From: Flavihumibacter sp.
Lineage (GTDB): Bacteria; Bacteroidota; Bacteroidia; Chitinophagales; Chitinophagaceae
Reading direction: 5' to 3'
Length of the DNA: 64,000 bases
Assembly (NCBI RefSeq): GCF_036676075.1
Contig: NZ_JAKFDQ010000016.1
Location: 104,071-168,070 of the forward strand
Shown: piece by piece, positions 1 to 6,000 of the stretch
How positions within the stretch are numbered: the stretch's first letter is position 1
How the letters are laid out: every line of letters begins with the position of its first letter
Position numbers and translations under genes: made by a program
The notes under the pieces: generated by a model
What the model saw: the letters and a program-made list of their open reading frames with translations, nothing else
What the model was told of the DNA's origin: nothing
Databases searched by the model: none

Positions 1-127
1 ACTGTGCGCCAGCTTGTGTGTATGTAGCTATTCCGGATGGGTCATCATCACTGGCACCGGTAATAAGGCTGGGACCAAGTGCTTTTCGGATATAATTGAT
101 CCGCTTTGCTTTTCTTCTTTTTCTCAT
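1..127 (-). CDS. NRAMP-family divalent metal transporter, N-terminus only (runs off the left edge)
   Basis: Manual translation MRKRRKAKRINYIRKALGPSLITGASDDDPSGIATYTQAGAQ contains the LGPxLITGASDDDPSGIATY signature. The ATG overlaps the upstream TGA (ATGA). Not in the ORF track. Confidence 0.85.
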   Translation of the reverse strand, partial: MRKRRKAKRINYIRKALGPSLITGASDDDPSGIATYTQAGAQ

Positions 128-801
128 GTTCGGTCGGCTTTCACCCAGCCGGCACGGATCGCAAAAAGAACGAGCCCAACCCGGCTCTTCACCTGTAACT
201 TTTCAAAAAGAGCTTCCCTGTAACCATCAATTGTTCGCTCACTGAGTTTCATGGAATTCGCGATCTCTTTATAAGTCATTTCAGAGGCTGCATATTTAAG
301 GAATTCCATCTCGCGCTCTGTAAGCCTTACCAATTGATCAGGATTCTTTTCTTCTTTATGTATCGTGTGTATCAACTTGCCCGTAACAAAATCTGAATAA
401 TAAAATCCGCGTTCGAGAATCTCTGTCATGGCACGCTGAAGTTCTGACTGGGTGCAATCTTTCAGCAGATAACCGCGGCAGCCCGCCCTTATCATCTGTA
501 TCACCGAAGTTTCATCGTCATTCATACTCAGGGCCAGCAACCGGATATTGGGATAGCTCTCCGAAAGCTGCCTGGCTGTTGCCACACCATTCATCTCCGG
601 CATATTAATATCCAGGATGGCGATATCAGGAAGGGTGGGAGAGCTGGCAAGTTTTTCCAATAATACTTTTCCATTACTTCCTATGAGTATAACTTCAAAG
701 CCAGGTATATCATTTATAAGATGTGAAAGCGACTCGGCAACTAAACGGTGATCATCGGCGATGGCAACCATATAACGCGATGGTGATTTACTGGGTGACA
801 T
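124..801 (-). CDS. NarL/LuxR-family response regulator
   Basis: REC domain (IADDH, LDINMP, GYLLK) plus C-terminal LuxR HTH (LTEREMEFL...SERTIDGYR). Confidence 0.95.
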   Translation of the reverse strand: MSPSKSPSRYMVAIADDHRLVAESLSHLINDIPGFEVILIGSNGKVLLEKLASSPTLPDIAILDINMPEMNGVATARQLSESYPNIRLLALSMNDDETSVIQMIRAGCRGYLLKDCTQSELQRAMTEILERGFYYSDFVTGKLIHTIHKEEKNPDQLVRLTEREMEFLKYAASEMTYKEIANSMKLSERTIDGYREALFEKLQVKSRVGLVLFAIRAGWVKADRT

Positions 802-1606
802 TTTCTGTTATTTTAGGAAGTCTGATGGTAATAATTGTGCCCATACCCGGACTGCTATCTATATTTATTTCTGCTCCCACAAGCGCTGCCCGCTTCTGCA
901 GGTTACGGAGGCCTGATCCGGCATCTTCAATTGTACGGGAATAATTATCGCCGGGACTAAATCCTTTTCCGTTATCACTGATCCTGAGTTGGAAATCCAA
1001 TGCTGTATAAACCATTGAAATGCTGATCTCAGTAGCGGCAGCGTGTTTCAGGATATTATTCAGTATCTCCTGAACCATCCTGAAAATTACTATCTCTTTT
1101 TTGGAATCTATATTGAAATCTTCACCCTGTGTATGGAACTGGCAATTGATCATTGCCGTTTGCTCGATTCGTTGTAATTCAAAACGGATCGATTCGCGAA
1201 GGCCATAAGAAGTTAGCATATCAGAATTTAAACCCTTCGATAGCATCCTGATATATTTAATAACATCTGCCAGAATCTGGTTGGTATCGGTGATACGTTT
1301 AACTGGTGCCTGTCCGTCCAGTTCTTTCTCAAGTATGTTGAGATTGATCCTGGCCACACTGAGAAGCTGCCCCATATTATCATGGATCTCCTGGCTCACA
1401 TCTCGCAGGGTCTGGTCCCTGCTTTCAATCTGTGTGGTAAGCACCTCTTTCTCATAGGCCTCTTTTAGTTGCTGCTGTTCATGATCCTGCCTGATCCTTC
1501 TTTTCTGACTACTGAAGATAAAATACACAACAAATCCACTCAACGCCAGCATAATTATTACCGCCGCTGCAAGGGTGTAAATGATCTCAAATTCGGTAGG
1601 CTTCAT
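788..1606 (-). CDS. HisKA_3-type sensor histidine kinase with one N-terminal TM helix
   Basis: H-box SQEIHDNMGQ, N-box QEILNNILKHA, DNGKGF, GSGLRN, G2 box PGMGT. Confidence 0.95.
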   Translation of the reverse strand: MKPTEFEIIYTLAAAVIIMLALSGFVVYFIFSSQKRRIRQDHEQQQLKEAYEKEVLTTQIESRDQTLRDVSQEIHDNMGQLLSVARINLNILEKELDGQAPVKRITDTNQILADVIKYIRMLSKGLNSDMLTSYGLRESIRFELQRIEQTAMINCQFHTQGEDFNIDSKKEIVIFRMVQEILNNILKHAAATEISISMVYTALDFQLRISDNGKGFSPGDNYSRTIEDAGSGLRNLQKRAALVGAEINIDSSPGMGTIITIRLPKITENVTQ

Positions 1607-1615
1607 GAAACATAT

Positions 1616-2254
1616 TTATCCTGTTACCCTTTTCTTCTGTAATGTAAAATTAATTATGAATGAAAGGTAAAAAAGCCATTCACTAACTATCAGAATTGGG
1701 ATCACCTTAACCTGACCCTCCCGGCTAAGAAAGTTATGAATGCCCATGGAAAGAAAGGAAGAAATAGAATTGATAAGGATACCCATCGCAATCCAGAAAC
1801 TGTACTGGTGGATGGTCTCCTGCCAGTTGTTGCGATCAAACAGCCGGGCTATATAGAACAGGATCTGGATGATCAGTAAGAGACAGGTTAAAACTATTAT
1901 GATCGTATTAAGGCTGGTGGTGGGAGGTTGAAGATAATATCCATTCAAAATTGCGGCGATATATACAAAACCTATCGATAATTTAAGGGCATTCTTCAAC
2001 CTCCCCATTTCACCCAACAATGCAATTGTCAGCAAAGCATAGTATATGGGACGGTAGGTGTGATAGTAAAGAAAATTATTTTCATAGATACGAGCCATCA
2101 AAGCATCCATGATTTCGCCCGGCAATGCTACAAGCAGGAAAAAAAGAAACAACCTGTTGGCATTGCTAAGTTTTTCCTCACGTATAAAACCCACGATCAG
2201 TGCTATTACAATGAGCGCTAATTTTACAAGGGTTCCGATCACATATATATTCAT
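1616..2254 (-). CDS. multi-pass (about 6-7 TM) membrane protein, candidate sensory partner of the kinase
   Basis: Consecutive hydrophobic segments; ends 9 bp before the kinase start. Confidence 0.75.
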   Translation of the reverse strand: MNIYVIGTLVKLALIVIALIVGFIREEKLSNANRLFLFFLLVALPGEIMDALMARIYENNFLYYHTYRPIYYALLTIALLGEMGRLKNALKLSIGFVYIAAILNGYYLQPPTTSLNTIIIVLTCLLLIIQILFYIARLFDRNNWQETIHQYSFWIAMGILINSISSFLSMGIHNFLSREGQVKVIPILIVSEWLFYLSFIINFTLQKKRVTG

Positions 2255-2276
2255 TGTCCTTGAAGCTTAAGGGAAA

Positions 2277-2669
2277 TTACCCTTTTCCGCAGATGGTTGG
2301 GCATGGATAATATACCATATAGATTACATCAGCGAAAGCATCAGATCTTTTGTAATTGAGTTGCTGACGTGATCCGTATATTATGAAAACAGGGCTTTTG
2401 AATTCAGGATGTTTGCCATAATAAATGGATATACCTGAAATGCCTTCCTGGCGGATCAGCGAATCGAGTACAACGTTAGGAATAAACATTCCCCTTTTAA
2501 ACTTTCCCCTGAATAATGGCTTCTTTTCGTAATTCTTTATATACTCGGATGCTGTAGAATCTGAGATCTGGACTGCCTGGTATTTTCCTTCGTCAACGAT
2601 CTTGTTGATGGAAGTGCAGGAAGCAAGTACTATCATACCTGCAAACAGGTATAGCATAAAATATTTCAT
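2277..2669 (-). CDS. lipoprotein with C-terminal PCPxxC motif
   Basis: Lipobox LASC at residues 15-18; ends YYPCPTICGKG. Confidence 0.8.
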   Translation of the reverse strand: MKYFMLYLFAGMIVLASCTSINKIVDEGKYQAVQISDSTASEYIKNYEKKPLFRGKFKRGMFIPNVVLDSLIRQEGISGISIYYGKHPEFKSPVFIIYGSRQQLNYKRSDAFADVIYMVYYPCPTICGKG

Positions 2670-2781
2670 GGCAACTGGTTTAGGTTAATGTGTATTATAA
2701 ATATAACTAAATGGTCATGGAAAAACCAGGGTTTGTTGTTCACGCCCCCTGGTTATATGAAAAGTAAGCACACATACTACT

Positions 2782-2919
2782 TCATTCTTTCCTGTTGATC
2801 TTGATATGCTGTTGACGTTTGTGATAAAGCACCACAAGCATGGTCACCAGCGTCAGCAATGCCATAATTAGCATCAGCCAGGGAAGTGTTTCGATGGAAA
2901 GGCTAAGCAATTTTTCCAT
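2782..2919 (-). CDS. 45-aa single-TM small protein (below the ORF-track cutoff)
   Basis: MEKLLSLSIETLPWLMLIMALLTLVTMLVVLYHKRQQHIKINRKE: one hydrophobic helix and a basic tail, co-directional with the operon. Confidence 0.55.
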   Translation of the reverse strand: MEKLLSLSIETLPWLMLIMALLTLVTMLVVLYHKRQQHIKINRKE

Positions 2920-3099
2920 ACAACTGATTTGAACTGTTTATAATAGAGGCCGGTATGGCTGTGGCGCCACGAGGCTACCACAACCGTGACCGACCGAACC
3001 CGATTCTTTGGTGAAAGTAGTTCACCCGCTATCCCCGGGAAAGGGGAGATTCCTCGTTTTACCACGGGAAAAACCCCGTATGCATGATTTAACAACAAC

Positions 3100-3126
3100 A
3101 AAAAAAAGGTCCGCCGTTGGCAGACC
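3100..3126 (-). terminator. intrinsic terminator-like hairpin upstream of the signalling operon
   Basis: Minus strand GGTCTGCC-AAC-GGCGGACC followed by T8. Confidence 0.6.
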
Positions 3127-3283
3127 GGGGCTAAAATAGGTGCGAGGGAATAAAAGCCCATTTGATAAGGTAATGGTTAGTGGTATCTGATGTAAGCATC
3201 CCAACACTGTAAATCTAAGATCATTTTCCAGGGTAATAACGGGCGTTAATCACGTGTGCAGGGGGGTATTTTCCCCGTTACAT

Positions 3284-3314
3284 AAAAAAGCCGCTGTGTA
3301 TTATACAGCGGCTT
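3284..3314 (-). terminator. intrinsic terminator of aconitase
   Basis: AAGCCGCTGT-N7-ACAGCGGCTT with a T-run on the minus strand. Confidence 0.8.
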
Positions 3315-3335
3315 CTATATTTTGCTAAGTTGAAA

Positions 3336-5603
3336 TTAACTGACGAACTGGTTACGAATGATATTCAATGCAGCACCTGCTTTGAACCATTCTATCTGCT
3401 GGTCATTATAGCTGTGATTGGCCAGTATCGTGTCGGAACTTCCATCCGTATGATTCAAAACGATCTGCAGCGGCTCGCCTGGTGAGAAAGTAGTCAGACC
3501 AAGAATATCTATACTATCATCTTCCAGGATCTTGTCGTAATCCGATTTCTCCGCAAATGTCAGTGCCAGCATTCCCTGCTTTTTGAGGTTGGTTTCGTGT
3601 ATACGTGCAAAGCTCTTCACCAACACCGCCCTAACACCAAGATGACGCGGTTCCATGGCAGCATGCTCGCGACTGGAGCCTTCTCCATAGTTCTCATCAC
3701 CTACAACTATAGATCCTATGCCCGCTGCTTTATACGCACGTTGTGTTCCTGGCACTGCACCATAATCACCCGTCAACTGGTTCTTTACATTATCAGTTTT
3801 CTCATTGAAGAAATTCACCGCTCCAATAAGAAGGTTGTTACTGATATTATCCAGATGGCCCCTGAACTTCAGCCATGGACCCGCCATTGAAATATGGTCG
3901 GTTGTACATTTCCCTTTAGCCTTGATCAGCAATTTCAATCCCCTCAGGTCTGTTCCTTCCCAAGCCGGGAATGGATCCAACAACTGAAGTCGCTTTGACG
4001 CCGGATCAACTTTTACCTGCACCCCGCTACCATCGGCTGCTGGTGCCTGGTAGCCTGCATCTTCCACATCAAAACCTCTTGCAGGAAGCTCATCACCCGT
4101 TGGTGGATCAAGTTTTACCTGCTCACCTTTATCATTGGTTAATGTATCTGTAAGCGGATTGAAAGAAAGATCACCTGCAATGGCCAGGGCCGTTACAATT
4201 TCCGGTGAAGCTACAAATGCATAAGTATTAGGGTTACCATCAGCCCTCTTTGCAAAGTTCCTGTTGAAGGAATGTACGATGGTATTCTTTTCCTGCTTTT
4301 CTGCTCCCATGCGATCCCACATTCCGATACAGGGTCCGCATGCATTCGCGAATACCTTGGCACCTATGCCATTGAATATATCGAGGAATCCATCGCGCTC
4401 AATGGTATAACGTACTTGTTCAGAACCCGGGGTTATCATGAACTCGGCTTTCGTCTTCAGGCCTTTTTCATTTACCTGTTTTGCCAGACTTACTGCTCTA
4501 CTGATATCTTCATAAGATGAGTTGGTGCAGGAACCAATCAGACCAACTTCAACTTTTGTAGGCCAGCCATTCTTAGCAGCCTCTTCCTTCATTTGGGAGA
4601 TCGGTGTTGCCAGGTCGGGCGTGAAAGGACCATTAAGATGTGGCTCCAGTTCACTCAGGTTGATCTCGATCACCTGGTCAAAATATTGTTCTGGATTGGC
4701 ATACACTTCAGCATCTGCAGTAAGATGTTCGCGAATGCCATCAGCCAGAGCAGCAACTTCTGCACGGCCGGTAGCTTTCAGGTACCTGCTCATACTGTCA
4801 TCATATCCAAAGGTGGAAGTAGTAGCTCCTATTTCCGCACCCATATTACAAATTGTTCCTTTACCGGTACAGCTCATGCTGGTAGCGCCTTCGCCAAAAT
4901 ATTCCACCACGGCACCAGTACCGCCTTTCACGGTAAGGATACCCGCAACCTTAAGGATCACATCCTTAGGGGCTGTCCAGCCATTGAGTTTGCCGGTAAG
5001 TTTTACCCCGATCAGTTTAGGCATTTTCAATTCCCATGCAAGTCCACTCATTACATCACAGGCATCTGCACCACCAACTCCTATCGCGATCATTCCCAGT
5101 CCACCCGCATTCACGGTATGACTATCTGTTCCTATCATCATTCCACCAGGGAAGGCATAATTCTCCAGCACAACCTGGTGAATAATTCCTGCTCCCGGCT
5201 TCCAGAAGCCAATTCCATATTTGTTTGAAACCGAAGCAAGGAAATCATACACTTCACTGCTCTCATGCACGGCACGGTCGAGGTCAACTTTACTATTGTC
5301 CTTGGCCACTATCAGGTGATCACAATGCACGGTGGAAGGAACCGCTACAGTAGTTCTGCCCGCCTGCATAAATTGCAACAGCGCCATCTGGGCCGTCGCA
5401 TCCTGCATGGCTACACGGTCGGGTGCAAAATCCACATAGCTTTTTCCTCTTTCAAAAGACTCTGTGGCGTCTCCCTGCCAGAGGTGGGCATACAATATCT
5501 TTTCTGTTAATGTGAGTGGTCGGCCAACAACCTTACGGGCAGCACTAACGCGGCCGGGGAAGCTGGCATACACTTTTCTGATCATCTCTAGGTCGAAAAC
5601 CAT
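3336..5603 (-). CDS. acnA: aconitate hydratase (mitochondrial-like Bacteroidota type)
   Basis: [43 protein letters not shown] and [10 protein letters not shown] motifs. Confidence 0.96.
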
Positions 5604-5776
5604 AACGATGTATGTTTGAGGTTTGATTTATAGAGGTTTGAAACCTGGCCTCAACTTTTCCCGGTTTGGGGAACAGGACCAGGGGAAAACCATGGGCACC
5701 GCGAAATTACCGATAAAACCGCTTTCTTTATAACCTTTTCGACTGCTAAATTGTTGAAATTGTCTAATTTGCTATT

Positions 5777-5998
5777 ATGAAGAACTTCAAACACTTTATT
5801 GAGTGGCATGTGTTTGGCGTGTGCTCCTATTTGGGCGACAAGATGGGTATAGCACCAGCTACCATCCGAAAACACTTCATGTATATTTCACTGCTCACCA
5901 TGGGATCTCCCATCGTGTTCTATCTTTTCACAGCTTTCTGGCTGAACATCCGTCAGTATATATATGACGGAAGAAGAAATCCGCTTCGGAATTTCTAG
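5777..5998 (+). CDS. PspC-domain small membrane protein
   Basis: FGVCSYLGDKMGI...IR..F followed by a TM segment. Confidence 0.75.
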   Translation: MKNFKHFIEWHVFGVCSYLGDKMGIAPATIRKHFMYISLLTMGSPIVFYLFTAFWLNIRQYIYDGRRNPLRNF

Positions 5999-6000
5999 GA

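Follow-up and report, generated by a model that had tools for sequence, protein, structure and literature searches.

A conserved Bacteroidota two-component cassette combining a stand-alone seven-helix membrane protein, a single-helix kinase and a CPxxC accessory protein: a candidate split sensor

Two-component histidine kinases devoid of any sensor domain are common and mostly unexplained. The present analysis concerns one such kinase and the genes surrounding it in Flavihumibacter sp. (Chitinophagaceae; an assignment with which loci of 95–96% identity in named genomes agree), within a 64,000-nucleotide stretch of contig NZ_JAKFDQ010000016.1 (henceforth "the window"); here a cassette occupying positions 124–2919, entirely on the minus strand, encodes a 45-residue membrane peptide, an accessory lipoprotein with a Cys-Pro-x-x-Cys (CPxxC) motif near its C-terminus, a stand-alone seven-helix transmembrane (7TM) protein, a histidine kinase and a NarL-type response regulator. 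The cassette is a two-component system with accessory membrane proteins which, judged from sequence, is built from two uncatalogued protein families, and it probably represents a route, hitherto undescribed, by which signals enter two-component systems. In the interpretation that we favor, and in which our confidence and our doubt are evenly balanced, the locus belongs to a widespread, uncatalogued type of Bacteroidota cassette with sensor and kinase on separate proteins and with the lipoprotein acting as a modulator.

Among the systems already described, the closest operon logic is that of SaePQRS of Staphylococcus aureus, in which the lipoprotein SaeP (146 residues), the polytopic SaeQ, a kinase without an extracellular sensor and a regulator are encoded in a single operon, and in which SaeP and SaeQ, neither of which resembles proteins of known function, tune the activity of the kinase by forming a complex with it (PMC5083920). 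The likeness is, however, one of operon logic alone, there being no sequence relationship: SaeQ has 4 helices instead of 7, SaeS combines two helices with a HisKA domain, SaeR is of the OmpR type, SaeP lacks CPxxC, the genes are ordered P-Q-R-S and the phylum is a different one. As far as the class of the kinase is concerned, LiaS and DesK are the nearest counterparts. DesK and DesR of Bacillus subtilis are likewise a HisKA_3/NarL-type pair, in which a signal born in the membrane is transmitted through a helix continuous with the phosphorylation domain, but natural DesK carries its five helices on a single polypeptide and works without partner proteins (PMC8301901). In the LiaFSR/VraTSR systems of Firmicutes, as in the cassette, a NarL-type regulator is paired with a HisKA_3 kinase whose membrane input is minimal, and a membrane protein, which in their case controls the kinase, is encoded directly upstream; on the other hand, LiaF is an inhibitor of ~4 helices with a cytoplasmic DUF2154-type domain that was not detected by Pfam in the cassette, LiaS has two helices and a HAMP domain whereas the cassette kinase has one helix and no HAMP, and Lia has no accessory with a Cys pair.

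The best functional parallel for a stand-alone seven-helix receptor with a separate transducer is provided by sensory rhodopsin II and HtrII of archaeal phototaxis, where the receptor signals laterally, by contacts between helices, to a membrane-anchored transducer whose cytoplasmic coiled coil controls a histidine kinase. Unlike the rhodopsin, the 7TM protein of the cassette has no retinal lysine in helix 7 and its Foldseek similarity to rhodopsins amounts to a TM-score of 0.5 with E > 0.1; furthermore, the part of the transducer would be played by the kinase, which has one helix as against the two of HtrII. As to the accessory motif, many Sco proteins read C-P-x-x-C-P. Sco/SenC resembles the accessory protein in carrying a Cys-x-x-x-Cys pair on a membrane-tethered periplasmic protein, and Sco binds copper and cycles between dithiol and disulfide (PMC5668878). 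Sco, however, has a thioredoxin fold, an internal-loop motif and a distal His ligand, whereas the motif of the accessory protein lies at the extreme C-terminus of a protein with another predicted fold, no conserved His and no Pfam match. None of the features that define homology to SaePQRS, LiaFSR, Sco, Agr or the rhodopsins is found in the cassette.

Five minus-strand open reading frames of 45, 130, 212, 272 and 225 residues were confirmed, separated by 112 bp (peptide–lipoprotein), 22 bp (lipoprotein–7TM protein) and 9 bp (7TM protein–kinase) and, in the case of kinase and regulator, overlapping by 14 bp; they are genes and not chance reading frames, because homologues are conserved in the same order in other genomes. 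A first-pass annotation had listed five co-directional, tightly packed genes, and its reading frames and its 22-, 9- and 14-bp figures are exact, the 112-bp gap being the one junction that is not tight.

The kinase (788–1606, minus strand) matches HisKA_3 (PF07730, E = 6.9e-6; 27.0 bits, with a cut-off of 24) and HATPase_c (PF02518, 7.2e-14) and has the H-box EIHDNMGQ; the NarL/LuxR-type regulator (124–801, minus strand) consists of a receiver and a helix-turn-helix domain (Response_reg PF00072, 1.5e-21; GerE PF00196, 7.7e-15). The two are an ordinary phosphorelay pair of the HisKA_3/NarL-type class, the nearest NCBIfam models being MctS/UhpB/LiaS/NarQ for the kinase and MctR/NarL for the regulator, all far below their equivalog cut-offs. 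At the N-terminus of the kinase, ~11 outside residues precede a single hydrophobic helix (residues 12–30), which is followed by a basic stretch and a long heptad-like, coiled-coil linker running into the H-box, and neither a HAMP nor an extracytoplasmic domain is present. Since one helix and these ~11 residues are all that precedes the linker, the kinase has no sensor domain, as the first-pass annotation had noticed in pairing a kinase with one transmembrane segment and essentially no sensor domain with a NarL-type regulator. The protein also differs from the intramembrane-sensing kinases, which have two helices joined by a linker of <25 residues. Its one-helix layout is common to all the downstream kinases compared.

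The 7TM protein (1616–2254, minus strand), for which 6–7 transmembrane segments and a stand-alone nature had been proposed, is modelled by AlphaFold2 as a compact bundle of seven helices (pLDDT 88.5, pTM 0.86). Of the 38 homologues scored, nearly all have, by their Lys and Arg bias, an outer N-terminus and an inner C-terminus, whatever the class of the partner or the membrane side of the accessory protein. The protein is almost entirely buried in the membrane, its loops being very short and constant in length (2, 6, 3, 5, 7, 11, 4 and ~8 residues) and its C-terminal tail measuring ~7 residues. The conserved polar residues E47, Y64, H65, N104, Q109, N174 and Y196 lie in the outer (periplasmic-side) half of the bundle. 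No Pfam or NCBIfam match was obtained even at E ≤ 1, no PDB sequence match was significant, and 16 homologues have no precomputed Pfam domain. A Foldseek search with the model returned only G protein-coupled receptors (GPCRs) and microbial rhodopsins (TM-score 0.44–0.56, E > 0.05), a resemblance that is that of seven-helix bundles in general and is not evidence of homology. Assignment to the microbial rhodopsins, 7TMR-DISM or 5TMR-LYT was considered and rejected, there being no Pfam match and no Lys in helix 7 (IPILIVSEWLFYLSFIINFTL). It may be mentioned that many homologues have a Cys at the cytoplasmic end of helix 7 beside basic residues (SFLCK, FLCR; L030, L031, L033, L034, L035, L037–L039, L041–L043, L045–L048, L050 and L051); this Cys is absent from the 7TM protein of the window and its occurrence does not correlate with the localization of the accessory protein.

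The order accessory, 7TM protein, kinase, regulator is found, with small or overlapping junctions, in 14 of the 14 loci whose accessory protein carries PCPxxC (the window, L001, L002, L013–L018 and L019–L023), which span six Chitinophagaceae genera of the genome sample, several metagenomic contigs and one metagenome-assembled Mucilaginibacter genome. Throughout these loci the polytopic protein measures 195–221 residues and the HisKA_3 kinase 252–280. The statement, in the first-pass annotation, that similar PCPxxC proteins occur beside such kinase pairs in other Bacteroidota is borne out, and the linkage of these homologues to the 7TM protein, kinase and regulator genes, which had been suggested as a check, is complete. 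The distribution of the 7TM protein is wider still: among 401 Bacteroidota genomes its profile has matches in 39, which represent 30 of the 180 genera, and a single genome may hold as many as 4 copies; the genome count is a lower bound, as the divergent second copy of the present genome scores E = 0.07. All 62 matches reside in frames of 59–260 residues, and the 7TM protein is therefore never fused to a kinase.

When the neighbors of the 7TM gene were tallied in 30 loci with 1.5-kb flanks, the following gene was found to encode a signalling protein with one helix and a coiled coil in 28 of them. In 22 loci this protein is a one-helix HisKA_3 kinase, a partner belonging to Bacteroidia, followed by a NarL-type regulator in most of the cases where the flank reaches that far; outside Bacteroidia it is a one-helix PAS-PAS-HisKA-HATPase kinase (4 loci) or a one-helix PAS-only protein (2 loci). 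The phosphoacceptor domains of the two kinase families are unrelated, whereas the N-terminal layout is shared, a few residues leading into a single helix that is succeeded by a basic patch and a coiled coil, and this is the pattern to be expected if the helix is a docking element. The swapping of partners is the strongest evidence on offer that the 7TM protein may work with the N-terminal helix of the kinase. To judge by these neighborhoods, the conserved core of the cassette is the 7TM protein together with a single-helix transducer, and not the lipoprotein around which the first-pass annotation had considered the system to be built. The same genome harbors a second and divergent cassette (G000:C11, ~111.1–113.7 kb; L054: 762–1223, 1294–2004, 2029–2865 and 2907–3437), in which a cytosolic accessory protein without signal peptide or CPxxC and a 7TM protein of 236 residues accompany a HisKA_3 kinase, again with one helix, and its NarL-type regulator.

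The accessory lipoprotein (2277–2669, minus strand) has an alpha/beta domain preceded by the sequence MKYFMLYLFAGMIVLAS-C18, which conforms to the lipobox pattern [LVI][ASTVI][GAS]C (LASC18 in this case) and predicts acylation; a Cys equivalent to C18 and preceded by A, S or G is present in 11 of the 11 aligned close relatives. The first-pass annotation had recognized a lipoprotein and the motif, but the protein does not end in YPCPTIC, its actual C-terminus being YYPCPTICGKG, where the two cysteines other than C18 are located. A phmmer search against 1.84 billion representatives yielded 14 relatives; when a profile was run against 5.8 billion proteins, 15 were obtained, every one annotated as hypothetical and devoid of Pfam domains. 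In an alignment of 17 sequences (31% mean column identity) the invariant positions of the mature protein are G60, P122, C123, P124 and C127, so that P-C-P-x-x-C, whose conservation the first-pass annotation had made a test of its proposal, is invariant in this clade. Neither Pfam nor NCBIfam recognizes the lipoprotein, the 7TM protein, 6–7 distant relatives or 33 accessory homologues, no significant PDB match to the accessory protein was found by sequence profile or by fold (best Foldseek E 0.12, TM-score 0.2), and the literature searches returned no description of the CPxxC motif or of the architecture of the cassette. The AlphaFold2 model (pLDDT 71) has the element order β-β-α-α-α-β-β-β and a disordered CPxxC tail of low confidence. 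This order matches that of PAS domains, but the Foldseek similarity to LOV, PYP and CitA is insignificant (E 0.1–2, TM-score ~0.2) and homology to PAS is unsupported, hhalign giving a probability of 0.2% against the PAS domains of related loci.

An HMM iterated three times on the 358 open reading frames of the 30 loci recruited 25 accessory homologues in 24 of these loci, each located directly upstream of the 7TM gene and none elsewhere; every recruit entered at E < 1e-3, the later E-values being inflated by a small database that includes the training sequences themselves. Near the C-terminus of 19 of the 25, C-P-x-x-C is found, commonly as PCPP[FYW]C. The N-terminus carries a lipobox in the Flavihumibacter clade and in L016, L033, L044, L046 and L053, a Sec-type signal or anchor in L015, L017, L028, L037, L042, L043, L045, L047 and L051, and no export signal, the reading frame being closed by a stop a few codons before the start, in L019, L023, L026, L032, L038, L039, L048 and others; the designation PCPxxC lipoprotein is accordingly appropriate for some lineages, the Flavihumibacter clade among them, but not for the family, in which Sec-exported, anchored and cytosolic members as well as members devoid of the Cys pair occur. 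CPxxC is shared by exported members and cytosolic ones, which makes it unlikely that the motif forms no more than a structural disulfide; a role involving a metal, a cofactor or reactive thiols is more plausible.

Two further features of the family are worth recording. Two metagenomic proteins, P0011 (243 residues) and P0015 (230 residues), are tandem duplications of the accessory domain without signal peptide, each copy ending in PCPPYC or PCPPWC, and their four cysteines would fit a single four-Cys metal or cluster site to which both domains contribute. Twin arginines occur in the signal peptides of L021:5001–5498 (MNRRNLI...) and L037:2135–2614 (MTRRFHH...); if these are Tat signals, the accessory domain would be exported in a folded state, possibly with a bound cofactor.

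The components of the operon evolve at quite different rates. Identity to the congener G015 is 92% for the aconitase of the neighboring gene, 73% for both the regulator and the cytoplasmic part of the kinase, 69% for the N-terminal helix of the kinase, 57% for the 45-residue peptide, 56% for the 7TM protein and 42% for the lipoprotein, which is therefore the fastest-evolving protein of the operon in spite of its fixed motif; rapid evolution around a fixed motif would be typical of an exposed input component. As a group, the proteins of membrane and periplasm change faster than the rest. In two near-identical genomes, all the cassette genes are 96–100% identical, and the cassette has not been replaced.

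In this species the operon very probably comprises six genes. Indeed, reading of the contig beyond the edge of the window revealed that the 5′ end of a 416-residue gene (1–127, minus strand), continuing to G000:C16 ~102947–104197 (L055:6877–8127), encodes an NRAMP divalent-metal transporter (PF01566, E 3.2e-79) whose ATG overlaps the TGA of the regulator as ATGA, indicative of translational coupling; the first-pass annotation lacks this gene because it is truncated by the edge of the window. The linkage is confined to the species group and is not kept in the congeners G015 and G162. At the other end, the 45-residue single-pass peptide (2782–2919, minus strand), which by reading frame and hydropathy has a short acidic N-terminus, a helix at ~12–32 and a basic C-terminal tail, is conserved in L001 and L002 (98–100%) and, as a 46-residue frame, in G015, and is absent from G162 and from other genera. 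That the peptide is a copy or decoy of the membrane helix of the kinase was considered and rejected, the alignment score being no better than that of segment-preserving shuffles. The spacer separating it from the lipoprotein gene (2695–2780, minus strand) contains a weak hairpin with a T-run after it (CCAGGG...CCCTGGTTTTT), as well as TTTCCA-18-TATAAT, which resembles a promoter; the corresponding distance in G015 is only 18 bp.

Beyond the cassette, genes are not conserved between genera. In one Chitinophagaceae clade (L015, L017, L018, L021 and L023) a lipid A-type acyltransferase gene (PF03279) always precedes the cassette on the same strand, and a convergent Lactamase_B-rhodanese fusion and an ArsR-type regulator follow it, while the neighbors at the Mucilaginibacter locus L019 are OsmC and an old-yellow-enzyme-type reductase (Oxidored_FMN). 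Such neighbors might point to a role in envelope or thiol stress, or might reflect plain synteny.

Several sets of data lead us to the interpretation given at the outset: the kinase lacks an input domain; the gene order is kept in all the PCPxxC loci; the 7TM protein is never fused to a kinase and is followed by single-helix partners of unrelated families; the accessory gene, where recruited, lies directly before the 7TM gene; the 7TM model is confident and compact with conserved polar residues towards the periplasm; and the PCPxxC motif is invariant in the fastest-evolving protein of the operon. From gene content and order, conservation and predicted folds, we infer contacts, stimulus and Cys-pair chemistry as follows. 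The 7TM protein would be the receptor, its outer-half polar cluster (E47, Y64/H65, N104, Q109 and N174) binding or sensing the stimulus; the ensuing conformational change would be passed sideways, from helix to helix, to the single membrane helix of the kinase, and this contact would set the balance between kinase and phosphatase activities and hence the phosphorylation of the regulator. The periplasmic lipoprotein would modulate the receptor, with the C-terminal Cys-Pro-x-x-Cys possibly serving as a thiol/disulfide or metal-binding switch, the CxxxC spacing being that of a known copper-binding, redox-active pair in Sco proteins (PMC5668878). The phosphorylated regulator would then control its own operon, including, in this species, the 45-residue peptide and the NRAMP metal importer.

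A more far-reaching version of the same mechanism, to which we attach some credence but considerably more doubt, would see in the 7TM proteins a phylum-wide set of GPCR-like receptor subunits that act on interchangeable single-helix transducers, with CPxxC proteins as dedicated redox- or metal-sensing or tethered-ligand subunits. If true, this would amount to a modular bacterial counterpart of the archaeal rhodopsin–transducer pair and a new entry of signals into two-component systems.

Several observations weigh against a receptor and modulator of the kind proposed. Loops of 3–11 residues leave the 7TM protein little surface for a soluble partner. The main difficulty is that the accessory domain is found on different sides of the membrane depending on the lineage, yet topology and loop lengths of the 7TM protein are constant, neither a flip of topology nor a lengthening of loops having been seen on passing from exported to cytosolic accessory proteins; this two-sided localization is hard to reconcile with a single conserved docking face, and would be more natural for a modulator or a protein that handles small molecules than for a subunit docked rigidly. 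Since 6 of the 25 accessory homologues, including that of the second cassette, lack the Cys pair, a Cys switch cannot be essential to the family. Furthermore, no third ligand comparable to the His of Sco is conserved in the 17-sequence alignment, and the covariation of 7TM residues with the presence of the Cys motif, as predicted by a shared metal site, revealed no clear pattern. Finally, a single helix can sense the state of the membrane by itself, as in MS-DesK (PMC8301901).

This last point is the starting premise of an alternative that we regard as unlikely but deserving of serious attention, in which the helix of the kinase senses membrane thickness, fluidity or charge, while lipoprotein and 7TM protein serve as auxiliaries comparable to SaeP and SaeQ, stabilizing the kinase or switching it to the phosphatase mode, so that they reset the system and do not supply its signal. 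The biochemistry of both model systems speaks in its favor, since DesK is a HisKA_3 kinase of which an engineered single-helix version still signals (PMC8301901), and SaeP and SaeQ, whose genes precede saeRS, associate with SaeS in a ternary complex in which its phosphatase activity is induced, but are dispensable for activation (PMC5083920). The gene order is the same here, and the variable localization of the accessory protein suits a modulator better than a subunit presenting a ligand. However, the retention of the 7TM gene before two unrelated kinase families and PAS-only proteins, as well as the conserved polar cluster within the membrane, suggests that the 7TM protein is more than a scaffold, and no conserved polar "caliper" features were identified in the kinase helices.

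Distinctly less probable is the possibility that the accessory and 7TM proteins, together with the peptide and the NRAMP transporter in this species, are outputs and not inputs, i.e., effectors of an autoregulated stress operon, for instance a buffer for thiols or metals and a small channel or transporter; the kinase would then receive its stimulus by another route. The genes are co-directional and probably co-transcribed, the NRAMP gene is translationally coupled to that of the regulator, and operons of the liaIH-liaFSR type are a precedent for mixing effectors and sensors. Moreover, a protein that detoxifies or binds could operate on both sides of the membrane, as the accessory protein does, and redox- or electrophile-related neighbors are present in L019 (OsmC and Oxidored_FMN) and in L021 and L023 (Lactamase_B-rhodanese). 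Such an arrangement would nevertheless leave the kinase without any sensor; in addition, the 7TM gene adjoins a single-helix transducer in 28 of 30 loci, often overlapping it by 4–16 nt, the neighbors outside the cassette are not conserved between genera, and the NRAMP linkage is limited to the species group. Least of all do we believe in an Agr-like circuit, in which the small Cys protein would be the precursor of a secreted cysteine-cyclised signal, processed or exported by the membrane protein and perceived by the kinase pair: the order of small protein, polytopic protein, kinase and regulator does recall agrD/agrB/agrC/agrA, the C-terminal Cys motif is conserved and the accessory protein evolves fastest, but the latter is a conserved folded domain of ~100 residues without leader/core layout, many of its homologues are cytosolic or devoid of cysteines, Pfam detects no AgrB or CPBP/Rce1-type protease, the kinase has no extracellular receptor part, and close strains, 96–100% identical throughout the locus, display no swapping of specificity groups.

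Upstream of the cassette lies a conserved leader hairpin (2948–3003, minus strand), a block of ~55 nt that occurs once per genome, always directly upstream of the cassette, in 4 of 4 Flavihumibacter genomes. It is composed of an outer stem (GGUCGGU/ACCGGC), an inner 9-bp stem (GGUUGUGGU/GCCACAGCC) and a variable apical stem-loop, and its nucleotide identity is 80–88% where the proteins are 34–42% identical. RNAalifold, applied to three distinct sequences, predicts a two-tier hairpin of 19 pairs, 3 of which display compensatory changes, and several invariant G-U pairs fit an RNA of the sense strand; Rfam and tRNA scans of bases 1–6000, the leader included, gave no match. The hairpin could be an mRNA leader or stabilizer, or a protein-binding site. 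The interval from the aconitase gene to the cassette holds two terminator-like hairpins (3108–3126 and 3288–3314, minus strand), ~180 nt apart; in the second, the stem covaries when compared with G015 (GGTCTGCC/GGCGGACC vs. AACCTGCC/GGCAGGTT, the latter pair being that of G015), and between the two lies a short conserved block (ACCATTACCTTATC). The region may be a small independent transcript.

How a large group of the sensor-less kinases of Bacteroidota from soil and water receive their signals could be explained, in a way open to experiment, by the cassette, namely if the sensor is a separate seven-helix protein. The invariant CPxxC tail represents a precise handle for mutagenesis and biochemistry on two unannotated protein families, and the coupled NRAMP gene suggests manganese or iron supply as the first phenotype to consider in this species. 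If the sensor is indeed split from the kinase, the 7TM proteins would constitute a new family of bacterial seven-helix receptors, and a single membrane helix would be a minimal docking element, reused by unrelated kinases and usable for receptor engineering.

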